64,000 nucleotides of DNA from an uncultured Gammaproteobacteria bacterium (GCA_963802215.1 CAWDHQ010000001.1:2216022-2280021); one strand, 5' to 3'; counted from the stretch's first letter, positions 9,804 through 64,000 are shown. Made by a program: numbers and translations. The notes: a model not told the origin generated them from the letters alone.

Positions 9804-10148
9804 ATGCGCCGCCTCAGCCCCCTTGCCCTGATGGTCCTCGCCACCTTCCTAGCGCCCGCCGCCCAGGCCGCCTGCGAATACCCGGCGGAAGTGAAGATCC
9901 CTGACGGCAAGAGCGCCACGCAGGAGGAAATCACGGCCGCCAGCACGTCGGTGAAGAAGTACCTCGCCGACATGGAGGCCTACACGGCCTGCCTCGATGC
10001 CGAGGTCGCCGCCGTGCCGGTGGAGCAGCAGACCCCCGAGATCAAGGCCATGCACGTCAAGCGGTACAACGCCGCCGTGGATGCCATGGAAGCCACCGCT
10101 AACGCGTTCAACGAGCAGCTCCGGGCCTTCAAGGCCGCGAAGAAGTAG
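9804..10148 (+). CDS. small secreted protein, unknown function
   Basis: 114-aa ORF with signal peptide MRRLSPLALMVLATFLAPAAQA and two Cys in the mature part. Its TAG stop lies inside a REP arm. Confidence 0.55.
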   Translation: MRRLSPLALMVLATFLAPAAQAACEYPAEVKIPDGKSATQEEITAASTSVKKYLADMEAYTACLDAEVAAVPVEQQTPEIKAMHVKRYNAAVDAMEATANAFNEQLRAFKAAKK

Positions 10149-10237
10149 GAGCGCCTTCAGGCGCGACCGGGAATTCCCCGGCAGGCGCGTCTCAGCGCCA
10201 GAGGGGAGTTGCCGGCGGCGCCTGAAGGCGCTCCTGC
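10145..10237. repeat. REP-like inverted pair (GTAGGAGCGCCTTCAGGCGCGAC ... GCGCCTGAAGGCGCTCCTGC)
   Basis: Two inverted arms of about 20-23 nt separated by about 50 nt, immediately after the stop of 9804..10148. Confidence 0.85.
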
Positions 10238-10297
10238 GTTGGAGTGCTTTAAAGCCCAGCGCCGGTTAGAATCCGCGCCCCGAACCGAGGACGACCC

Positions 10298-11275
10298 ATG
10301 ACCAAAGCCGCGAGAGTCACCATTACAGGCGCAGCCGGGCAGATCGGCTACCAGCTTGCCTTCCGTATCGCTTCCGGCCAGCTGCTGGGGCCAAACCAGC
10401 CCGTGATCCTCCAGCTGCTGGAGATCACACCCGCTCTGGGCGCGCTGGGTGGCGTGGTGATGGAACTGGAGGACTGCGCGTTCCCGACCCTGCAGGGCGT
10501 GGTGGCCACCGACCAGGCCGATGTGGCCTTCAAGGACACCGACTACGCGCTGCTGGTCGGCGCCAAGCCCCGGGGCCCCGGCATGGAGCGGGCCGACCTC
10601 CTGCGCGACAACGCGAAGATATTCTCGGTACAGGGCAAGGCACTCAACGAGCATGCGAGCCGGCAGGTCAAGGTGCTGGTAGTCGGCAATCCCGCCAACA
10701 CCAACGCCCTGATCGCCCAGAGCAATGCCCCCAGCCTCAATCCCGCCAATTTCACGGCGATGACGCGCCTCGATCACAACCGGGCGCTGGCCCAGCTGGC
10801 GGCCAAGACCGGCACCCACGTGAGCCAGATCAGCCGCATGACGATCTGGGGCAATCATTCCGCCACCCAGTATCCCGACATCCACCATGCCCTCGTGAAT
10901 GAACGCCGGGCCAGCGAGCTGGTGGATGCCAAGTGGGTGAAGGACGACTTCATCCCCACCGTGCAGCAGCGTGGCGCGGTCATCATCAAGGCCCGGGGCC
11001 TCTCCAGCGCGGCCTCGGCCGCCTCCTCCGCCATCGACCACATCCGCGACTGGGCCCTCGGGACGCCCGGGGACGACTGGGTGAGCATGGCCGTGCCCTC
11101 GGACGGCAGCTACGGCATCAAGGAAGGCATCATCTATTCCTATCCGGTGCGCTGCGCCAAGGGCAGGTACGAGATCGTCGAGGGCCTCGCCATCAGCGAT
11201 TTCAGCCGGGAGCGGATGAAGGCCACCGAAGAAGAGCTGCGCCAGGAACGGGACGCCATCGCCGCGTTGCTTTAA
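10298..11275 (+). CDS. mdh: malate dehydrogenase (LDH-like/cytosolic-type MDH)
   Basis: 325 aa with [15 protein letters not shown] fold, [10 protein letters not shown] and TRLDHNRA motifs. Confidence 0.93.
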
Positions 11276-55117: not shown

Positions 55118-56479
55118 TTGAGCGCACGGAAGGGAGACCCATCTGTGCGCGCGATCATCGGTGCCCGCTTGCTGGCAAGCGGGGCCGCCCAGCCCAAGGC
55201 CAAACCGTTCGACATCCGGGATAGTCGCCTGGCGGGCTTCCTATTGCGCGTCCAGCCCTCCGGAGCACGGTCCTTCTGTGTCCAGCTCGGCAGGGGCAGA
55301 AGGCTGACCCTGGGCAAGGTGGGCCACCTGACCCCCGAGCAGGCGCGCCACCGGTGCGAGCAGGTGCTGGGGAACGTCGCCCACGGCCGGGAGCCGCTGG
55401 CGGGCCTGGATGGGGCCGCGCGGCTCAGCCTCGGGGAGTTCATCCGGAACCAGTACGAGCCCTGGATCCAGGCCAACCGGCCCCGGAACGCGGCATCCGC
55501 CCTGGCCCGGGTCGAGAACTGCTTTGGCCACTGGTACGACCAGCCCATGTGCGGCCTGTCCACCTACCAGCTCGAAGCCTGGAAGACGGGTCGCCTGGGG
55601 AAGGGCAAGCGGCCGGCTACCGTGCTCCGGGACCTGACCACGTTGTCAGGCATCCTGAGTTTCGCTGTCCGGCTGGGCCTTCTGGCTGACAACCCCATGC
55701 GGCGTGTCCTCAAGCCACGGCTGGACCGGACGCCCAATGTGCGGTTCCTGGACCCCGAGGAAGAGTCACGCCTCCGGTCGGCTCTGGAAGATCGGGACCA
55801 TCGCATCAGGGCCGCCCGGGAGTCCGGCAACGCCTGGCGGCGGGCCCGGAATCATGCGCCGCTGCCCAAGCTCACCGGCTTCGGCGACCACCTGACGCCC
55901 GCTGTCCTGGTCAGCCTCAACACGGGATTGCGCCGCGGCGAGTTGCTGGCGCTCTGCTGGCACGATATCAACCTGCGGCTGGCCGTGCTGTCGGTTCAGG
56001 CCACGTCGGCCAAGAGCGGGCAAACGCGCCACGTCCCCCTCAACGCCGAATGCATCGAGACCCTGAAACGCTGGCGGGACCAGAATCCGGATGCCAGTCC
56101 CCTCGACAAGGTGTTTGCGGTCAGCACCTCATTCAAGACCGCCTGGTCGGTGGTTCTGAAAGCGGCCGGTATCAAGAGATTCCGCTGGCACGACCTGCGC
56201 CACCACTTCGCCTCGCGGCTCGTCCAGGCCGACGTCAATCTCAATACCGTCCGGGAGCTGCTGGGTCACGGCTCACTGGCAATGACGCTGCGGTATGCGC
56301 ACCTGGGACCGGATCAAAAGCGTGAGGCCGTTGACCGGCTGTCCATGCGGCGGGAGGAACCGGCTGAAGCAAGGGCAACGGCAGCGCTGCTGGGATTTCC
56401 GCGAGCTGGCGAATTGCCACCGCCAGACTATTGCCTGCCACCCGCAGCCCGGGGCGGCCTGTCTGCGGCGCACCCTTGA
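55118..56479 (+). CDS. tyrosine-type site-specific integrase, P4-like (DUF4102 arm-binding N-terminus)
   Basis: FDIRDSRLAGFLLRVQPSGARSF N-terminal domain. Catalytic region TGLRRGEL, WHDLRHHFAS, LGHGSLAMTLRYAHL. Start is TTG 55118 or GTG 55144 (after GGGAGA). Confidence 0.88.
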   Translation: MSARKGDPSVRAIIGARLLASGAAQPKAKPFDIRDSRLAGFLLRVQPSGARSFCVQLGRGRRLTLGKVGHLTPEQARHRCEQVLGNVAHGREPLAGLDGAARLSLGEFIRNQYEPWIQANRPRNAASALARVENCFGHWYDQPMCGLSTYQLEAWKTGRLGKGKRPATVLRDLTTLSGILSFAVRLGLLADNPMRRVLKPRLDRTPNVRFLDPEEESRLRSALEDRDHRIRAARESGNAWRRARNHAPLPKLTGFGDHLTPAVLVSLNTGLRRGELLALCWHDINLRLAVLSVQATSAKSGQTRHVPLNAECIETLKRWRDQNPDASPLDKVFAVSTSFKTAWSVVLKAAGIKRFRWHDLRHHFASRLVQADVNLNTVRELLGHGSLAMTLRYAHLGPDQKREAVDRLSMRREEPAEARATAALLGFPRAGELPPPDYCLPPAARGGLSAAHP

Positions 56480-56488
56480 CCGCCTGCG

Positions 56489-56833
56489 TTACTGCCGCGC
56501 GGGCATACCGAGCGCGAGTGTCAATCCGTCGTCGATCTCGTCGGCTCCCAGAATTCCGTTCTGCAGCGCGTAGATCACGCTGAGGTCGACGGAACCCAGC
56601 ACGTACCGCTTGTAGAGGTCGCGCGAAACGCCATCGTGGAACTTGTGCACCGCCTCATTCAGATCGAACGCGCCGTTCTCCCTGCCTCCCCAACGCTCGA
56701 ACTCCTCGTAGAGATCGGTTAGTGCGGCGGTCAACTCCCGTGCATGGGCTGTCGCCGCCAGCTGGCGGAGCTGGGTCCGCTGGCTCTTGGTCAAAGATGA
56801 CACGGGGCAGGCAAAACCTTCACAAGATGTCAC
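56489..56833 (-). CDS. hypothetical protein (114 aa)
   Basis: Track ORF with a GTG start inside CTTAGGTG. Convergent with the integrase, 9 nt apart. Confidence 0.45.
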   Translation of the reverse strand: MTSCEGFACPVSSLTKSQRTQLRQLAATAHARELTAALTDLYEEFERWGGRENGAFDLNEAVHKFHDGVSRDLYKRYVLGSVDLSVIYALQNGILGADEIDDGLTLALGMPARQ

Positions 56834-56853
56834 CTAAGGACATAGCGATTGAG

Positions 56854-57258
56854 TTATGCGCCCTGGGCATGAATCGAAAGTGAGCGATCAATAGAATCCC
56901 AAGGACATGAAGACCCGTTCCAGGTTACGTGCGTAGGCTTAAACATGCTGGGGTCGTCAAGCGAAGCCGCATATACGAAGCACACATCCGGAAATGCCCT
57001 GACAGTGATCAGCGTCGGGCTGCCACACGTTGCACAGAAGCCCCGGGAAATCACGTTGCCGCTGCCGCCAGTAACGTCGTGGTAGTGGACATCCCCGCGT
57101 ATCGAACCGCCGCCCAGGCTGAACATTGCCAGCGGAGCGTGCCCAGAGCCCGTGGCGCGCTGGCAATCGCGGCACTGACAGAAATACGAGAACCTCGGCC
57201 CATCATGGAACTCGTACCGGATTGCACGGCAGGCGCAGCCACCGGTGAATGAAGCCAT
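56854..57258 (-). CDS. GFA-family (CENP-V/glutathione-dependent formaldehyde-activating-like) zinc protein
   Basis: GGCACRAIRYE, CQCRDCQR and CATCGSP Cys motifs characteristic of the GFA family. Confidence 0.8.
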   Translation of the reverse strand: MASFTGGCACRAIRYEFHDGPRFSYFCQCRDCQRATGSGHAPLAMFSLGGGSIRGDVHYHDVTGGSGNVISRGFCATCGSPTLITVRAFPDVCFVYAASLDDPSMFKPTHVTWNGSSCPWDSIDRSLSIHAQGA

Positions 57259-57316
57259 ACCTAGTGTCTCCTCTCGGCTGAACTATGGCGCAAAACGCCG
57301 CGGTCAGCCGACGACG

Positions 57317-57706
57317 CTATTTCGCTTTGAGTGCTGCCTGTACCCGAAGCCAGAGGTCGTCTGACATAGTGTTCTGCCACACTCCAGCGAGTAAGCCACG
57401 AAAGGCGCTGCTTTGCTGGGCCTCCTGCTCAACCAGCTCGATGAGCCGATTGCCGTGCTCCGCCAACAGATCCTCCAATGGACCCGCAGCCAGGCACTCC
57501 AACGCCTGGGTGGAGTGAGTTCGCTCAAGGATCTCCAGAACTACGCTCCAAGCCAATTCCGGGTCGTTGCGGCACAGAGCATCAAGCTGCTCCCAGACCC
57601 AGAACCTTTCGTCGGGGACCTGCGCCCGGCTTTTGGCCACCAGAGCAGGATCGGTATATCTCTCGATCCACGTCCGGATGAGTGTCTCTCGATCGAAGCG
57701 CTCCAT
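57317..57706 (-). CDS. hypothetical helical protein (129 aa)
   Basis: Track ORF with an ATG start. No family recognised with confidence. Confidence 0.5.
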   Translation of the reverse strand: MERFDRETLIRTWIERYTDPALVAKSRAQVPDERFWVWEQLDALCRNDPELAWSVVLEILERTHSTQALECLAAGPLEDLLAEHGNRLIELVEQEAQQSSAFRGLLAGVWQNTMSDDLWLRVQAALKAK

Positions 57707-57768
57707 CAGCTTACGCCGGCAAACGGTTGAGCTGAATGGGCCGCGCGCCGGTGAGTGGGCTTGGCACT

Positions 57769-58173
57769 TTATTCATTCCGGCTGCGCTCAAGCGAAGTGC
57801 TAGGCGGCAAACTGCCGTTGCTCCGTCGCCCGAAATACATTCCGATCACGATTGCGGCGATGAGCATTGGGATCAGAGCTGTCGCGTACGCAATCGGCGT
57901 GTAACTGGTACCGAGTTCGGCCCGAACGGCTTCCACGAAGCCTGGATCGTGAGCGTTATGCCACGCGCTCAGGAAACCGAGGACTCCCCACGCAGCCGGC
58001 AGCAAAGCCAGCCATGGACGCCAGAGACCCAACGTGAGAGCAAGCGCTCCCACGACTACCCCTTCACCCAGCATCCAATTCTGTGATGGCATCTTGTCGG
58101 AGATCCCAGCGATGGCAGAGATCGGCACAGTGATCCCGACAGTGAGCCCCCAAATTGAATGTTGTCGTTTCAT
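57769..58173 (-). CDS. hypothetical membrane protein
   Basis: Start taken at ATG 58173 (MKRQHSIWGLTVG). Four hydrophobic segments. Confidence 0.5.
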   Translation of the reverse strand: MKRQHSIWGLTVGITVPISAIAGISDKMPSQNWMLGEGVVVGALALTLGLWRPWLALLPAAWGVLGFLSAWHNAHDPGFVEAVRAELGTSYTPIAYATALIPMLIAAIVIGMYFGRRSNGSLPPSTSLERSRNE

Positions 58174-58293
58174 CAGCTCTCTCTTACCGAGCTTCGGTGC
58201 TTGCACCTAACCAGTCGCTGCACCAGTCGCATGACGCACCTGCCACGCGGCTTTCACCCGCAACCCGCGCGGCAGCCGCGATTCGCCGGCGAG

Positions 58294-58479
58294 TCACTGG
58301 TTGTCCGTCTCCGGCTTCTGCCATTCGCCACGCTCTTCCAGGACCTCTCGGTAGGCAATCTGCCCCTCCTCGTTGATGTAGCCGGTGTTCAACAACTGCC
58401 TGATCTTGTCCGATGGGAGCTTTCTATAACGTTCCTTGGCCCGCTCAATACCGTGGTACTTCTCGTCGCGCTTTGTCAC
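58294..58479 (-). CDS. small hypothetical protein (61 aa)
   Basis: Track ORF with a GTG start, highly charged sequence. Confidence 0.35.
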   Translation of the reverse strand: MTKRDEKYHGIERAKERYRKLPSDKIRQLLNTGYINEEGQIAYREVLEERGEWQKPETDNQ

Positions 58480-58587
58480 GGAACAGGCACCTAGCGCTTC
58501 GCATCAGCGACGCGCCGATGCCCCAACCCAGAACCCACTGCGGCAGACACGACTTTCACCTGCAACTCCGAAGGGTGCACTCAGCGT

Positions 58588-58872
58588 TCAACGCAACGAC
58601 TCTGAGTCTGCCTTGGCCTGCGCTGTTTGAAACGCCTCTTCCACGTAGTCTTGGACTCGTCGATATAGTGCCCGATCCGCAACGGCAGGTTCCATACGTT
58701 GCGCCACAAAGACGGCGTCTACGAAGGAGACGACGTTGTCCGGTGGCTTCTCGCAGAGTTCGTCGTACTGTTGCCAATCAAGACAGAATCCAAGGTCGAC
58801 GCACAGCTTACCGAGAAGCAACTCGACGTCCTCCGGGCGAAGGGCATTTGTCATCGGAGCCACGCTCTCCAT
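58588..58872 (-). CDS. hypothetical protein (94 aa)
   Basis: Track ORF. The ATG lies 8 nt downstream of a GTTAGGC core. Confidence 0.45.
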   Translation of the reverse strand: MESVAPMTNALRPEDVELLLGKLCVDLGFCLDWQQYDELCEKPPDNVVSFVDAVFVAQRMEPAVADRALYRRVQDYVEEAFQTAQAKADSESLR

Positions 58873-58903
58873 GAGGGTCGCCTAACCTTACCCTCTCGCA
58901 TAG

Positions 58904-59314
58904 TTATGTGCCGCCCTTTGTCGAGTGGGAACCAGGAGGGCGCAGGCCTCTTGAGCGTTCCACCTGCTTCTTGTGAAGCTGCCGGCACGCACGGCAACGA
59001 GCTGCCCGCTTGTACGCAGGCGCCTTTGCAACCTCGTACCACCACTTTTGTTGCGTTGACGTCCATACCTCTGACCGTCCACAGTCCCGGCAAGTGAACG
59101 GTTCGTCAACGTAATACCCGCGGACCAGAAAGAGCGGACGGCGCTTGAAGTGTGTGAGTGCCAACGGGTTCACACTAATGTCGACTTGTTGATTCCCGTG
59201 ACGGGCACGCGCAGCCCAAGTAGCTGCGGCCCTTTCTTCCTTGCGCGCCTTCTTGATGCTACGTACGAGCTTTCGAGTCGCCTTGGCTTGCTTGGATTCT
59301 GGCGCGCGCTTCAT
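58904..59314 (-). CDS. zinc-ribbon protein (CxxC ... CxxC)
   Basis: FTCRDCGRSEVWTSTQQKWWYEVAKAPAYKRAARCRACR resembles the probable zinc-ribbon family (CxDCG...EQ...RCxxCR). ATG at 59314 is preferred over 59362. Confidence 0.5.
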   Translation of the reverse strand: MKRAPESKQAKATRKLVRSIKKARKEERAAATWAARARHGNQQVDISVNPLALTHFKRRPLFLVRGYYVDEPFTCRDCGRSEVWTSTQQKWWYEVAKAPAYKRAARCRACRQLHKKQVERSRGLRPPGSHSTKGGT

Positions 59315-59336
59315 ACGGCGGGGCTGGAGCAAGCTC

Positions 59337-59777
59337 TCAAGCGCGACGGACGCGCGCGCCACGGCGCTGAACCGGACCGGTGGAGCGAATGGTTATGCCT
59401 GCGATGGCGCCAAACGAAAGGGCAACGGCTAGGCCCAGTGTGGCTCCCCATAGCACCTGGACGGTTCCAAATGCCGCTGATGATCCCAGCAATAAGCCAA
59501 GAATCGTCAGGGAACAGAAGAATGTGAGTATTCCTCCACAAATGCCAACAAGGGCGAGCGTCACTAGGTTCAACTGGCCAAAGTGTCGAAGGATAAGAAT
59601 GGCCGGCAACCCTATGAACAACATTCCGGCGTAAGAGCTACCGGCAACAAGGCCTACCGTCAGGAACCCCCATGAGAAGCCAACTCCGTTGGCGAGTTCC
59701 AAGCCACCCACGAGCAACGGTAGGACAGCCGGAGCCACGGCAGCTGCGAGTGAGGTACGACGTCTATCGAGTCGCAT
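59337..59777 (-). CDS. hypothetical membrane protein
   Basis: ATG at 59777 (MRLDRRRTSLAAAVAPAVLPLLVG). Four hydrophobic segments. The ATG is embedded in a GTTATGC core. Confidence 0.5.
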   Translation of the reverse strand: MRLDRRRTSLAAAVAPAVLPLLVGGLELANGVGFSWGFLTVGLVAGSSYAGMLFIGLPAILILRHFGQLNLVTLALVGICGGILTFFCSLTILGLLLGSSAAFGTVQVLWGATLGLAVALSFGAIAGITIRSTGPVQRRGARVRRA

Positions 59778-59860
59778 AACGTTGGAGGTGAGCGCCGCGC
59801 GCGCTGCTGTACGAACGTGCCACACGTCTTCCAAGTGCGCGCTCCAGCGAGGTGTCAGGC
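59774..59860 (-). repeat. probable attC site (87 nt) of the 59870..60229 cassette
   Basis: The plus strand reads GCATAAC...GTCAGGC. The 5-nt unpaired spacers are followed by the paired GAGCGC box with one extra base. Weaker than the sites further right. Confidence 0.45.
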
Positions 59861-59869
59861 GGCATGCGC

Positions 59870-60229
59870 TCAGCTATACGGGGCCTCGTCCGTGCGGACG
59901 AAAGCGCCGTCGCGGCTGTAAACAAAGATGTCCGGGTCTTGAAAGTTGTGAATGCAACCTTCAGAGAAGGTCTCTTCGACAAGATGGATGCTCACCCGAA
60001 ATGTACCATCAGGTGCAGCATCGAGCTCGAACTTGCAGGCGTGTTGACCGCCAGTGCAAACGTCCCGCTTTCTCGCCTGAGCATCCTCAAGTCCAGCAGC
60101 TTGCGCCGAATTACTAGGGATTGAGCTATCGCAGGAATAGTCGTTGCGGAGACGAGGAAATAGGTAGTCAATACAGATTGCGGCAATCACGAGGTTGATG
60201 GCGACCTTGATGGTCGTGCGTACGCTCAT
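59870..60229 (-). CDS. hypothetical protein with N-terminal TM helix (119 aa)
   Basis: Track ORF. The ATG is 6 nt from the GTTAGGC core. Confidence 0.5.
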   Translation of the reverse strand: MSVRTTIKVAINLVIAAICIDYLFPRLRNDYSCDSSIPSNSAQAAGLEDAQARKRDVCTGGQHACKFELDAAPDGTFRVSIHLVEETFSEGCIHNFQDPDIFVYSRDGAFVRTDEAPYS

Positions 60230-60235
60230 GGTGCC

Positions 60236-60369
60236 GCCTAACGGCTGAGTTCAGCGGCGGCACGCCAGCGCCATTTTGGCGCGCGGGCGCAACGCGCCCG
60301 CCCAGAAAGTGATGGCGCGCGCCCGCGCGCTAGCACTTTATGGGTCCCCGGAGAGTTCCTACGAAAAAG
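60236..60369 (-). repeat. attC of the ddl cassette, distal part (R' side), separated from its partner by the IS
   Basis: GCCTAAC-ggctga-GTTCAGCGG pairs with CCGCTGGAAC-gcctg-GTTAGCG at 61604-61628 (one extrahelical base). Confidence 0.6.
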
Positions 60370-60383
60370 TGGACACCCATGGG

Positions 60384-61268
60384 TTAGGTACATGTGCGTT
60401 CGAACTCGATCGGTGAGCGGTAGCCCAGGGCAGAGTGTAGTCGCACGCGGTTGTAGAAATCGACGTAGGAGCGGAGGGCCGAGCGCAGGGCACCGTCGCT
60501 GCTGAAGGTGTAGCGGTGGATCAGGTCGGACTTCAGGGACTTGAACATCGACTCCATGTGGGCGTTGTCGGTCATGCGGCGCGGGCGGTTCGTGCTCTGG
60601 CCCAGTCCGGCGCGGCGCAGGCTGGCGGTGTACTCGCCGGCCAGGTACTCAACGCCACGGTCACTGTGGAACAGGGTTCCCGGCCCCGGGCGGCGGGTCT
60701 GCAGGGCCTGACGCAGGGCGCGCCGGGTCAAGGCCGCCGTCTTCTCCGGGCCCAGGCTCCACCCCAACAGCCGCCGCGAGTAACGATCCATGACCGTCGC
60801 CAGGTAGCGCCACTCGGAGCGCACCTTGAGGTACGTCACGTCACCGACCCACACCTGGTCGGGTCGCTCGATGGTGGTGTTGAAGATCTGATTACCGACG
60901 CTGGCATAGAAGCGGCCCAGGCCCGGCAAGTGGCGATACAGGCGGGCCGAGCAGGCCCGGACGCCGTTCTCCCGCATCAAACGCTCGATCCGGCGGCGAC
61001 CCACGCGCTCACCGGCCTGGGTCAGCTCGGCGTGGATCCGGGGACTGCCGTAGGTCTCCCGGCTGGCCTGGTGCGCCGCCTGGATCTTCGCCACCAGTCT
61101 CTGATCCTCGGTGGCGCGCTCACTCGGTGGTCTGGCCCGCCACGCGTAGAAGCCGCTCGGGCTGACGCCATACAGCTGGCACATCGTCCTCACCGGGAAG
61201 AGCGCCTGGCAGTGCTCGATGAAGGCGAAGACGTCGCTTTTTGTTCGGAAGTGAACTCGATGGCTTTT
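60384..61268 (-). CDS. IS3 transposase OrfB (DDE/rve domain), expressed as OrfAB by -1 frameshift
   Basis: Track ORF 60384..61406. Has [16 protein letters not shown] and DNAHMES DDE motifs. Its frame is -1 relative to orfA at the TTAAAAAAAG site (61264-61272). Confidence 0.85.
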
Positions 61269-61546
61269 TTTAAAATCTCGTGCTCGAGCTTCAGGCGCTC
61301 GTAATCCCGCTTCATGGCGCGCAGCGCCTTGAGCTCGGCGGCCGTGTCCTTGTCGATGGCGATCCCTTTGGTCACGATCAGGCCCTCGCGCGCTTGCTTG
61401 CGCCAACGAGACAACATGAACGGATGGATGTAAAGAGACTCGGCCACATCTTGCACGGCAACTCCGGGCAACTGGCTCAAACGCACGGCGGTCGCTTTGA
61501 ATCGGTCGCTGTACTTGTACGTCGTTCTCGGGCCTGGTCGTGGCAT
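61190..61546 (-). CDS. IS3 transposase OrfA (HTH)
   Basis: 118 aa, [23 protein letters not shown]... with a leucine-zipper-like tail, typical of IS3 OrfA. Confidence 0.85.
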
Positions 61547-61583
61547 CTTGGGGTACTCCTGAAGGGTTAGTTCAGGGTGTCCA

Positions 61584-61628
61584 CTTAACCGAAGGAACTA
61601 TCGCGTCCGCTGGAACGCCTGGTTAGCG
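61584..61628 (-). repeat. attC of the ddl cassette, proximal part (R'' side)
   Basis: Ends in GTTAGCG (61622-61628), which contains the ddl TAA stop. AGGAACT here pairs with AGTTCCT on the other side of the IS. Confidence 0.6.
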
Positions 61629-62642
61629 GTCACTTTGCCTGCCTCTGCAGCTTGATATTGCCAATTGGCAAATGCGCTCGCACAACTCAGGGAAGTCAAT
61701 TCCGACCGCCTTTGCCGACTGTGGCAATAAACTCGTCGCAGTGAGCCCAGGAACACTATTGGCCTCCAAGCACCAGATTTGCCCCGCCTCATCCATTCGG
61801 AAGTCCACACGCGAGTAGCCGCCGAGCTTGAGAGCCTTGTGGACCCTAACTCCTAGCTCCTGAATCTCGCGTGTGGTGAATGGCGGAATGTCCGCCGGGA
61901 ATACTTCGCGAGCGCCACCGTGCTGATATTTGCTTGCGTAGTCGAAGATTTCCGTTGGCGCCACAATCTCGCCTACCGCGAGAGCCTGCCCATCAAGTAT
62001 TCCCACCGTGAACTCGCGACCCGGCACATACGCCTCAAGCATGACCTCACGACCAAACGTTGCTGCCTTGGACATCGCCGACTGGAGATCAGCGGCTTCG
62101 CGAACCAACGATAAGCCGATGGTGGACCCTTGGGCGTTGGGTTTAATGATAACGGGATACCCGAGGGTATTTGTTACCGTATCGTCGGGCGTGCACATCT
62201 GCCATGCCGGCGTCGGAACGCCAATCGCGACCATTAGACGTTTGGACACATCCTTGTCCATTGCGATCGCGCTGCCAACATGGCCTGACCCGGTGAATGG
62301 AATACGCAAAGCCTCCAACAAGGCTTGGAAGGTCCCGTCCTCACCCGTGCCCCCGTGCAGAGCGATGAAAACCAGATCGACATCTCGCAGTTCCGGCGAA
62401 CTAGCGACCGCTACCGGAGACTGGCTTCGCGCTTCTACCAGTGCGGTAGTTTCTGGCGGCTTGGTGAAGACCTCAAACCCCTCAAGTGCACGCTCTGCTT
62501 CTTTTGAAAGCACGCCCCTTGCCGTATCTACTGCGATGACGTTGTGGCCGGCAGCCCGAAGCCCGGAGATAACCTGAAGGCCACTAGCGATAGACACGTC
62601 ACGTTCCTCGCTAGAACCGCCAAAAAGCACCGCAACTCTCAC
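61623..62642 (-). CDS. ddl: D-alanine--D-alanine ligase (ATP-grasp)
   Basis: 339 aa with VAVLFGGSSEERDVS, IALHGGTGEDGT, PVIIKPNAQGSTIG, FDYASKY and LEANSVPGLT motifs collinear with E. coli DdlB. Confidence 0.9.
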   Translation of the reverse strand: MRVAVLFGGSSEERDVSIASGLQVISGLRAAGHNVIAVDTARGVLSKEAERALEGFEVFTKPPETTALVEARSQSPVAVASSPELRDVDLVFIALHGGTGEDGTFQALLEALRIPFTGSGHVGSAIAMDKDVSKRLMVAIGVPTPAWQMCTPDDTVTNTLGYPVIIKPNAQGSTIGLSLVREAADLQSAMSKAATFGREVMLEAYVPGREFTVGILDGQALAVGEIVAPTEIFDYASKYQHGGAREVFPADIPPFTTREIQELGVRVHKALKLGGYSRVDFRMDEAGQIWCLEANSVPGLTATSLLPQSAKAVGIDFPELCERICQLAISSCRGRQSDR

Positions 62643-62682
62643 GACGTAACACCGAGCATTGGATGAGGCGCCCGCACGTGAC

Positions 62683-62747
62683 CGCTAACGTCTACGCTGA
62701 CCGGCGCGTGCCCTTCGCCGCGCGACCGGTCGAGCGTTTGGTTAGAG
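62683..62747 (-). repeat. attC site (65 nt) of the brnT-brnA cassette, copy 1
   Basis: CGCTAAC-gtcta-CGCTGACCGGCGCG-loop-CGCGCGACCGGTCGAGCG-tttg-GTTAGAG. Core boxes, unpaired spacers and two extrahelical bases match the canonical attC architecture. Confidence 0.75.
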
Positions 62748-62982
62748 GCCGGTCCGAATGACGATCAGCATAGGTGTCCAGGAGGCTCCGAATCATTCTC
62801 TGATACGGCACCTTTGAGCGTGCGGCATGAGCCTTGAAGAAGTCGACGCTCTTCTTGCTGAGGGAAATGGTGACCTTGACCCCATCTTCCTTCAGGACCA
62901 GCTGGTCTGGGGGCGGAAGAAAGTCATCAATGACCTCCAGCCGGCCGAGCGGCTCATCTGGGTACTTTTGAATGCGCTTCAT
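62692..62982 (-). CDS. brnA: BrnA-type antitoxin (CopG/RHH)
   Basis: 96 aa. KVTISLSKKSVDFFKAHAARSKVPYQRMIRSLLDTYA matches the BrnA family. The C-terminal about 17 aa are encoded by the attC. Confidence 0.8.
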   Translation of the reverse strand: MKRIQKYPDEPLGRLEVIDDFLPPPDQLVLKEDGVKVTISLSKKSVDFFKAHAARSKVPYQRMIRSLLDTYADRHSDRPLTKRSTGRAAKGTRRSA

Positions 62983-63241
62983 AGAGTTTCCTGCCTCTGC
63001 GCCAGAAACCGGCGCCGATGATCCGGATGATGTTGCCTCGATAGGTGAACCTGACCGTCAGGACACCCTCCGATACGCGGCCGAAGCAGTAGTAGCGCTG
63101 CTCAGCCTGGCTGTGCCGCATGTCGCGGGCTATGACGCGGCCAGGATCAAGAAAGGCAATCTGGGCCTCGCCAAACGACACGCCGTGCTTTCGTTGATTC
63201 TCGGCATCCTTGGCCGGGTCCCAGTCGAAATCGGCTGCCAT
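62954..63241 (-). CDS. brnT: BrnT-type toxin (DUF497 ribonuclease)
   Basis: 95 aa. FDWDPAKDAENQRKHGVSFGEA and RIIGAGFWRRG are BrnT/DUF497 hallmarks. The toxin gene is upstream of the antitoxin, as in BrnTA. Confidence 0.85.
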   Translation of the reverse strand: MAADFDWDPAKDAENQRKHGVSFGEAQIAFLDPGRVIARDMRHSQAEQRYYCFGRVSEGVLTVRFTYRGNIIRIIGAGFWRRGRKLYEAHSKVPR

Positions 63242-63303
63242 GCTGGGAGCCTACCACCGGTATGGAGAAAGAGCCATACAACAGTATGGAATATGTGCGC
63301 GGC

Positions 63304-63399
63304 CTCTAACGTTCGAGGTAACCGGCGACCGGAGCGCGAAGCGCGGAGGGTACCGAGAAGCGCAGCTTCTCGGGCGTCCGGTTGACCGAGGGGTTAGGC
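63304..63399 (-). repeat. attC site (96 nt) of the VOC cassette
   Basis: CTCTAAC ... AACCGG ... CCGGTT ... GTTAGGC. The VOC gene TAA stop lies inside the GCCTAAC core (minus strand). Confidence 0.6.
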
Positions 63400-63780
63400 A
63401 CCTGGCGCAAAGTTGAGCTCAATTCCGTTGCCTGCTGGGTCTGCAAAGAAGATTTGGCGGTGACCGATGCCAGGAATCGTGTCGGTCGTGTAGGAAACCT
63501 GGTGTCGTTTCAATGCATCTTCGAATTGGTCAAACTCGGAGCACGCAAGAGCGACATGATCGAGGGTGCTGGCGACATTGGGTGGATGACACTCACCCTC
63601 AAACATGACGGACAAATGGACGATGGGTCGGTTGTCCGCATATAGCCAGTATCCGCTACTGGCAAACGCCGGGCGGGGGCCGAGCTGTAGGCCAAGGACG
63701 GTTAAGTAGAAGTCTTTAACTTGGTCGATGACCGCAGACGACGCGCGAATGTTGTAGTGATCAATGCCGTGGACTGCCAT
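63394..63780 (-). CDS. VOC-family (glyoxalase/bleomycin-resistance/dioxygenase) protein
   Basis: 128 aa. IDHYNIR...LGL and DHVALAC...FFADPAGNGIEL are typical VOC motifs. Confidence 0.8.
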   Translation of the reverse strand: MAVHGIDHYNIRASSAVIDQVKDFYLTVLGLQLGPRPAFASSGYWLYADNRPIVHLSVMFEGECHPPNVASTLDHVALACSEFDQFEDALKRHQVSYTTDTIPGIGHRQIFFADPAGNGIELNFAPGA

Positions 63781-63827
63781 GATTGTCTTGAGTGGATCAG
63801 ATCGTGTTGAAGTCGACTGTGGATGGT

Positions 63828-63892
63828 GCCTAACGTCTACGCTGACCGGCGCGTGCCCTTCGCCGCGCGACCGGTCGAGCGTTTGGTTAGAG
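63828..63892 (-). repeat. attC site (65 nt) of the brnT-brnA cassette, copy 2
   Basis: Identical to 62685-62747 apart from the outermost core bases (GCCTAAC instead of CGCTAAC). Confidence 0.75.
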
Positions 63893-64000
63893 GCCGGTCC
63901 GAATGACGATCAGCATAGGTGTCCAGGAGGCTCCGAATCATTCTCTGATACGGCACCTTTGAGCGTGCGGCATGAGCCTTGAAGAAGTCGACGCTCTTCT
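63837..64000 (-). CDS. brnA: BrnA-type antitoxin, second copy (3' part; gene runs off right edge)
   Basis: 63830-64000 is base-for-base identical to 62685-62855, so the same reading frame and TAG stop apply. Confidence 0.75.
   Translation of the reverse strand, partial: KSVDFFKAHAARSKVPYQRMIRSLLDTYADRHSDRPLTKRSTGRAAKGTRRSA

Follow-up and report, generated by a model that had tools for sequence, protein, structure and literature searches.

This report concerns positions 56489 to 64000 of a 64,000-nt stretch of DNA (the window) from an uncultured Gammaproteobacteria bacterium (GCA_963802215.1, CAWDHQ010000001.1:2216022-2280021). An earlier note had described this region as an integron-like gene-cassette array without the integron integrase gene intI in the window, and that description is upheld here by an attC covariance model, by covariation, by cassettes that recur in other genomes, and by the absence of IntI from the window. 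All 14 open reading frames (ORFs) of the region and all matches to the cassette recombination site attC are on the minus strand, with attC 3' of the ORF. From right to left, the order is a truncated BrnA gene (BrnA'), a VOC ORF, BrnT, BrnA, a D-Ala-D-Ala ligase (Ddl) of 339 amino acids (aa), and an insertion sequence (IS) of the IS3 family, followed to the left of the IS by p119, p165, zf_Tbcl, p94, p61, p145, DUF6869, GFA, and p114. The Ddl cassette and the IS3 element had been omitted from the cargo first listed. The G+C content is 0.58 to 0.62 across the array versus about 0.69 in the host. The features from 60.2 kb to the right-hand end are given below. Family labels are from Pfam and NCBIfam, and attC scores are from a first covariance model (R1), built from 130 attC sites of other genomes with no window sequence, or from an iterated model (R2; 150 sites from 30 arrays).

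63837-64000, minus: second BrnA antitoxin gene, 3' part, from a duplicated BrnT/BrnA cassette cut by the window end
63827-63893, minus: attC A1, intact (R1, 55.3 bits, E 4e-12; DNA fold z -3.2)
63394-63780, minus: VOC/glyoxalase-family ORF, 128 aa (PF00903, E 1.5e-6)
63303-63400, minus: attC A2, intact, 98 nt (R1, 64.5 bits; R2, 66.5 bits; fold)
62954-63241, minus: BrnT toxin gene, first of the two-gene cassette 62689-63309 (PF04365, 78.5 bits; cutoff, 34.5)
62692-62982, minus: BrnA-like antitoxin gene (PF14384, 18.8 bits, under the cutoff of 26.1)
62682-62748, minus: attC A3, intact (R1, 56.5 bits; fold)
61623-62642, minus: D-Ala-D-Ala ligase ORF (PF07478, PF01820; NF002378, 326 bits; cutoff, 243)
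61603-61629, minus: attC A4, 5' arm, with R'' CGCTAAC, spacer CAGGC, and L'' GTT-C-CAGCGG-A (by eye against the consensus; R2 partial match 61556-61629, 11.4 bits)
60351-61602, minus: IS3-family element within A4, minimal extent 60367-61586 (HTH_Tnp_1, HTH_21, and rve domains), with orfA at 61190-61546, orfB at 60384-61406, and an A7G slippery run at 61264-61271
60235-60350, minus: attC A4, 3' part, with a branched variable region, L' CCGCTG-AAC, spacer, and R' GTTAGGC at 60242

Four attC sites in the right half

The three distinct sites of the right half share one top-strand (minus) plan, which reads YCTAAC, a 5-nt spacer, NNT-C-NA(C/G)CGG-A, a variable region, a complementary L', a 6-nt spacer, and GTTAG. 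A3 is a duplicate of A1 except for the distal R' bases. When the plus strand of A1 to A3 was folded as DNA, a paired R box, open spacers of 4 to 6 nt, and an L stem bulged on its 3' arm were obtained (z about -3). This position of the bulges indicates that the plus strand is the bottom strand, as expected for minus-strand cassettes. On the opposite strand the covariance model gave A1 to A3 only 10 to 21 bits, and in the rest of the window nothing outside the array exceeded 13.5 bits.

The fourth site, A4, is interrupted by the IS. Its arms read CGCTAAC-CAGGC-GTT-C-CAGCGG-A and CCGCTG-AAC-TCAGCC-GTTAGGC, the L box is perfectly complementary, and the usual extra C is present. With the IS removed, the site folds as one attC of 143 nt (175 nt with the smaller IS boundaries), whose R and L boxes are both paired and leave one base bulged out. 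The four attC sites proposed in the earlier note (63828-63892, 63304-63399, 62683-62747, and the split site) are thus real: boxes, spacers, and extrahelical bases are in place, three sites are detected by an independent covariance model at 55 to 66 bits, and the fourth is recovered by refolding without the IS. Folding of the candidate bottom strands, which had been suggested along with them, gave the canonical picture at A1 to A3 and a single attC at the rejoined A4. The sites begin at 63827, 63303, 62682, and 60235, at spacings of 524, 621, and 2447 nt, and relics at 59773 and 57717 come next.

The GTTAG(G/A/C) core is concentrated in this part of the window, with 12 copies on both strands in 56 to 64 kb versus 6 in the remaining 56 kb. 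Five of the 12 copies are on the plus strand and include the inverse cores of all four attC sites. The six minus-strand cores reported previously (63834, 63310, 62689, 60242, 58886, and 58211) were all found; a further minus-strand GTTAG core at 61850, within ddl, looks like chance. Each ORF had been said to follow a core within a few nucleotides, which applies to three of the six cores (about 15 nt from the start codon), whereas the rest lie 47 to 69 nt upstream. Likewise, stop codons had been placed inside the inverse core. This is correct for the VOC cassette (63310-63833; TAA within R'', GCCTAAC) and for the Ddl cassette (beginning at 62688; TAA within R'', CGCTAAC) but not for the two BrnA copies, which read through R'' to a stop in the 3' spacer.

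The same attC family in other genomes

The part common to two window sites was used as a search pattern, and one genome per species was scanned. The pattern matched at least 120 loci in other genomes, compared with about 2 expected by chance according to our own estimate; the matched loci (labeled L plus a number) are mostly in betaproteobacterial, gammaproteobacterial, and acidobacterial metagenome-assembled genomes (MAGs). In 100 of these loci there were 435 attC matches, demonstrating that the loci are arrays. Covariation was assessed in the 130 aligned sites at positions free of the pattern. There, 91.5% of the cells were paired, versus 75.5% after shuffling and 23 to 42% when the partners were slid, and double-sided changes numbered 469 versus 170 in the shuffles.

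Among L001 to L120, the subtype with an ACCGG/CCGGT L box occurs in Beta- and Gammaproteobacteria, Acidobacteria (Blastocatellia), Nitrospirota, Planctomycetota, and Anaerolineae, and it is present too in MAGs labeled Actinomycetota and Saccharimonadales. Two loci, L041 and L048, contain 8-kb blocks with more than 17 attC sites.

Cassettes bounded by cores

BrnT is followed by an antitoxin gene that overlaps it, the arrangement of a type II toxin-antitoxin system. The antitoxin is assigned to BrnA, at a score below the family cutoff, because of this gene order and the 29-nt overlap with BrnT; by tblastn it is 92.6% identical to its counterpart in L095. Positions 63830 to 64000 (171 nt) are 100% identical to 62685 to 62855, which indicates that the BrnT/BrnA cassette is present twice. 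The cassette at 62684-63311 is 87.7% identical to L095 3050-3677, from a gammaproteobacterial MAG, and 83% identical to a copy in L070, from an Anaerolineae MAG. In both comparisons the similarity stops at the cores on both sides.

The BrnA ORF runs through the whole attC in both copies (62692-62748 and 63837-63893), with R'' read as Leu-Thr and a TAG stop in the 3' spacer, so that the recombination site supplies the codons for about 18 residues at the C terminus. The homologues in L095 and L070 have this read-through in common.

The Ddl cassette (61606-62689) is 91.4% identical to a copy in L121, a Logan contig, and the similarity begins exactly at GTTAGC. Since similarity starts or ends at GTTAG cores, BrnT/BrnA and Ddl are discrete mobile units: each has coding sequence plus attC, is bounded at G|TT, and occurs in different genomes. 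At the level of sequence comparison, such core-bounded recurrence is what site-specific recombination leaves behind when it moves cassettes. On the 14-kb L121 contig no attC array could be detected; the Ddl copy there (9954-11040) has kept no more of its attC than a truncated 5' arm and resembles a solo cassette that inserted away from any integron. A second ligase, in L123 (76% identical), was rejected as a cassette.

An IS3-family element within A4

The element that splits A4 has the orfA and orfB domains, the A7G run, and the imperfect inverted repeats of the IS3 family; the core of the repeats is AAGTGGACACCC, and its extension is imperfect. The nearest relative among the compared loci is in L099, with amino acid identities of 64% for orfA and 50% for orfB. 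The plasmid collection held no relative useful for fixing the ends of the element. The IS is apparently intact and would have landed recently in the variable loop of the fourth attC.

Fossil cassettes in the left half

The part of the array to the left of the IS, as far as the integrase gene that limits it, contains the following features.

59870-60229, minus: orphan ORF p119, first fossil cassette (no Pfam or NCBIfam family)
59773-59861, minus: decayed attC relic, R'' GCCTGAC and R' GTTATGC (R2, 24.7 bits, E 6e-4 window-wide)
59337-59834, minus: orphan membrane ORF p165 (hydrophobic translation; no family match)
About 59275-59399, minus: attC relic with the 5' 80 nt well kept (GCATAAC-CATTC-GCT-C-CACCGG...) and a mutated 3' arm
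58904-59362, minus: zf_Tbcl-domain ORF (PF13451, E 3e-13)
58879-58910, minus: minimal relic, ACATAAC, 16 nt, and GTTAGGC (core 58886), just upstream of p94
58588-58872, minus: orphan ORF p94
58294-58479, minus: orphan ORF p61
57769-58206, minus: membrane ORF p145, after the core GTTAGGT at 58211
57717-57806, minus: decayed attC relic, R'' GCCTAGC and R' GTTTGCC (R2, 19.0 bits, E 0.017 window-wide and 0.001 within 4 kb)
57317-57706, minus: DUF6869 ORF (PF21746, E 1e-32)
56854-57258, minus: GFA-family ORF (PF04828, E 1e-22)
56489-56833, minus: orphan ORF p114, last of the array (no family), converging on the integrase gene 9 nt away
55118-56479, plus: P4-type tyrosine integrase, left limit of the array (PF00589, PF13356)

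The array is two-tiered, intact to the right of the IS and fossil to the left of it. The progressive leftward decay toward the P4-type integrase that had been proposed therefore has the right direction but is not a gradient: the sites change abruptly at the IS. The relics at 59773-59861 and 57717-57806 are intergenic and on the correct strand, and their critical AAC/GTT triplets are mutated. A third relic, at about 59275-59399, retains a segment of 78 nt (59318-59395) matching, at 87% identity, the 5' part of an L070 attC that is 125 nt long and scores 46 bits there. The drifted 3' arm of the relic is now within an ORF, and the relic has been absorbed into both neighboring frames, as the 3' end of p165 and as a 5' extension of the zf_Tbcl ORF, whose true start is probably the ATG at 59314. 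Two of these relics, 57717-57806 (19 bits) and the one at about 59275-59399, had been overlooked. Three degenerate sites had been named instead: the one at 59780 corresponds to the relic at 59773-59861, whereas those at 58495 and 56838 have no model support.

Less is left at the other junctions. The relic at 58879-58910 has lost its interior and keeps a core pair only (R2, 4.2 bits, minus strand; 8.7 bits, plus strand), a lone GTTAGGT core is left in 58205-58306, and no core is recognizable in 58487-58596 or 56830-56862. Among the ORFs, p119 had no match in a protein scan of metagenomes, and p145 is probably a protein of 134 aa from the ATG at 58173, a length that the gene caller also gives. 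A homologue of the GFA ORF in L008 (1777-2145; 33% identical) sits between attC sites, the next of which is at 2225-2319. In exact look-ups, the GFA protein and the large serine recombinase of the window had records on short Logan contigs of ERR12035938 alone, the VOC, BrnT, BrnA, Ddl, and IS orfA proteins returned no record, and a VOC oligomer had no exact match among genome or metagenome contigs.

Between DUF6869 and GFA there is a stable hairpin (57255-57322; z -3.7) with a 7-bp outer stem, an internal loop, and an 8-bp inner stem. It has attC-like geometry without AAC/GTT triplets and may be either a terminator or what heavy mutation has left of an attC. A covariance-model match at 56687-56725 (11 bits), inside p114, was treated as chance.

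Integron integrases in the window and elsewhere

Neither IntI nor an intI remnant was found in the 64-kb window with the TIGR02249 profile or by tblastn with four IntI proteins. The tblastn searches returned only the generic catalytic domain of the P4-type integrase and one weak match. The P4-type integrase was rejected as an IntI, since it scores 33.7 bits on TIGR02249 against a cutoff of 265. The weak match, on the plus strand at 59081-59356, resembles the C-terminal part of IntI (E 9e-4; 31% over 95 aa) and runs antisense to the zf_Tbcl ORF. It was rejected as an intI fossil between the array tiers because it lacks the catalytic residues and has no match to a hidden Markov model, and because the opposite strand encodes the 5' end of the zf_Tbcl ORF; it is probably a chance match.

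Full-length IntI proteins are encoded at four of the loci with the same attC family, L055, L090, L061, and L093, from betaproteobacterial, Duganella, and Blastocatellia MAGs. They score 472 to 490 bits on TIGR02249, and their genes adjoin the upstream end of the array, divergent from it and on the opposite strand.

Insertion at tRNA-Arg(CCG)

PolA relatives of the host at 90 to 92% identity are labeled Gammaproteobacteria or Chromatiales bacterium, and comparison of the PolA sequence groups the host with uncultured members of the Gammaproteobacteria. PolA and Ddl proteins 100% identical to those of the window are on a 2,314,610-bp NCBI/ENA contig, the source of the window. Over 30447-50481 the window is syntenic with a related MAG, L122, which then carries an intact tRNA-Arg(CCG) (L122 19894-20060 region) flanked by Crp-regulator and cytochrome c genes. 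In the window, the synteny is followed from 50482 by an insert of 4.4 kb, with two orphan ORFs and a large serine recombinase of 535 aa, and then by a remnant of the tRNA gene.

54909-54952, minus: att-site remnant of tRNA-Arg(CCG), comprising its 3' 44 nt and breaking off in the anticodon loop (100% identity with the corresponding part of the L122 tRNA)

The end of synteny at 50481 together with this remnant indicates at least 13.5 kb of acquired DNA at tRNA-Arg(CCG), the array included. The domains of the P4-type integrase and the 44-nt fragment with an insertion relative to L122 would fit a tRNA-associated island, which should also be flanked by direct repeats of the tRNA 3' end; the repeat is present in a single copy, with no second copy of the 44-nt tRNA core within the window. 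ARAGORN detected no whole tRNA in the window, the Rfam and ARAGORN scans had no match there, and the plasmid collection held no near match to 50 to 64 kb. It is conceivable, if rather doubtful, that an integrative island at tRNA-Arg(CCG), movable by the P4-type integrase next to the array, carries the entire array as cargo, whether or not intI is part of it.

Several details of this locus are recorded here as observations. The P4-type integrase is on the anticodon-loop (crossover) side of the tRNA fragment, is directed away from it, and has no intact tRNA gene beside it, unlike the usual arrangement of tRNA gene and integrase. The last codons of the large serine recombinase extend into the tRNA fragment, and about 90 nt of host flank are missing relative to L122. 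A strong terminator-like hairpin (AAGAGGGCACTTGATCGGTGCCCTTTTTT, 54869-54897, minus strand) directly follows the 3' end of the fragment and differs from L122.

Interpretation and alternatives

We conclude with high confidence that an integron gene-cassette array on the chromosome of this uncultured gammaproteobacterium has its promoter-distal stretch at 56489-64000. The array is an ordinary one of a well-known kind, with its right half intact and its left half decayed, and its first cassette is outside the window. Each cassette would comprise one or two promoterless minus-strand ORFs followed by attC. In keeping with established integron biology, the single-stranded plus strand is predicted to fold into a hairpin recognized by IntI, in which the R box is paired, the spacers are open, and G and T/A of the L box are extrahelical. 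IntI would bind this folded bottom strand, cut between the G and the TT of the GTTAG core, and exchange strands at G|TT with attI or another attC, and expression would be expected for the cassettes nearest to the promoter Pc. The right segment (60.2 to 64 kb), with four attC sites and the cassettes BrnT/BrnA (twice), VOC, and Ddl, looks recombination-competent. In the left segment (56.5 to 60.2 kb), the nine co-oriented ORFs would be cassettes that can no longer be excised, their attC sites having decayed; by the same established biology, sites with mutated triplets would be dead. The BrnT/BrnA modules may help to keep the array in place, as toxin-antitoxin cassettes stabilize large arrays.

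Four points weigh against this interpretation. The window contains no intI, attI, or Pc and ends 107 nt past the last attC. The IS is not flanked by a clean target-site duplication. The junctions at 58879-58910, 58487-58596, 58205-58306, and 56830-56862 have no supported fold or model match and are regarded as former cassette junctions from their context. Finally, the models were seeded from one attC subtype (the ACCGG L box), and other subtypes may score too low.

By analogy with the four loci that encode IntI, the intI gene for this array should lie to the right of 64000 on the plus strand. We lean slightly toward a complete integron, with intI (plus strand), attI, and Pc located beyond 64000, because the proximal sites are intact and one cassette has been duplicated unchanged. 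Short of an even chance, but to be taken seriously, is an orphan array, that is, a real attC cluster with no integron integrase nearby, whose cassettes would move only with IntI supplied in trans. It could have been split from its platform by a rearrangement or delivered with the tRNA-Arg island. Clusters of attC sites lacking integron integrases (CALINs), for which two or more attC sites of the same strand must lie within less than 4 kb of each other, are commoner than complete integrons in complete genomes (279 versus 164), and about half of them are in genomes without IntI (PMC4889954). The array would fit such an origin in having no intI remnant in 64 kb, mobile DNA all around it (the IS3 element, the P4-like integrase, and the large serine recombinase), and half of its length already decayed. 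However, the four right-hand attC sites are intact, a cassette is duplicated at 100% identity, suggesting recent IntI activity, the orientation places the missing platform exactly at the window end, and this type of attC adjoins intI in four other genomes.

It is unlikely that only 60.2 to 64 kb is an integron array and that the nine ORFs at 56.5 to 60.2 kb are cargo of an island of the P4-type integrase that never were cassettes, the attC-like junctions on the left being chance or terminators. Four junctions lack a significant model match, the hairpin at 57255-57322 is plain and without the triplets, and the left ORFs adjoin the P4-like integrase with no spacer, all as this explanation would have it. 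Yet two junctions match the model window-wide at E 6e-4 and E 0.017, with the strand and the location expected of attC, and a third shares 87% identity with a genuine attC from a different genome. GTTAGG(C/T) stands just upstream of p119, p94, and p145, where by our estimate 0.2 such cores would be expected by chance at the rate in the rest of the window, and the left ORFs share their strand and low G+C content with the intact part. The remaining explanation, that the repeats are other palindromes between small genes (REP/BIME-like [repetitive extragenic palindromic/bacterial interspersed mosaic element] sequences or intrinsic terminators), agrees with the presence of G+C-rich imperfect palindromes downstream of ORFs but is already refuted by the conserved CTAAC/GTTAG boxes, the fixed spacers of 5 and 6 nt, the fixed bulges and covarying stems, scoring on one strand (about 56 versus about 20 bits), between-genome homology bounded by cores, linkage to IntI genes elsewhere, and zero copies in the remaining 56 kb of host DNA.

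Relation to known systems

As an integron array, the locus resembles the sedentary chromosomal integrons of Gamma- and Betaproteobacteria in its co-oriented promoterless cassettes, each with R''/R', L''/L', and extrahelical bases, in its cargo of toxin-antitoxin, small-enzyme, and orphan genes, in a G+C content below that of the host, and in its duplicated cassette (PMC4889954). Unlike them, it shows no intI/attI/Pc platform in the window, has lost half of its attC sites, and lies within DNA inserted at a tRNA gene, beside a P4-type integrase. The definitions of IntegronFinder (PMC4889954) make the locus an attC cluster at the minimum, since its attC sites share a strand and follow one another at less than 4 kb; as in CALINs, there is an IS within it. 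The absence of intI that a CALIN implies covers the left side and the window here, the right side being cut 107 nt past the last attC.

There is a further likeness to the complete integrons of L055, L090, L061, and L093, which share the attC subtype (CTAAC, 5 nt, NNT-C-NACCGG-A, CCGGTN-ANN, 6 nt, GTTAG) and the array on one strand, with intI divergent at its upstream end in those loci; they differ from the window array in containing IntI, in their taxa, and in their cassette content. Solo cassette insertions outside att sites are described in a preprint (bioRxiv 10.1101/2022.09.11.507474). The L121 Ddl copy, with no array around it, is similar to them but has no more than a truncated attC 5' arm, and the Ddl cassette of the window is inside an array.

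Significance

Nothing here alters existing knowledge of integrons. The locus adds to the environmental integron arrays an example from an uncultured lineage of Gammaproteobacteria, most of its cassettes being of unknown function. Details worth keeping are the split between live and fossil cassettes, the insertion of an IS3 element into the loop of an attC, the occurrence of Ddl as a cassette here and as an apparent solo copy elsewhere, and the setting in a putative tRNA-Arg island. A cassette-borne additional D-Ala-D-Ala ligase merits mention, as added ddl copies can raise D-cycloserine tolerance. Live and fossil cassettes side by side in one array are useful for studying cassette domestication and the rate of attC decay. 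If the island reading is true, the environmental integron would have a second, coarser level of mobility, and its left half would record the fixation of cassettes, with attC decaying while the ORFs stay open.

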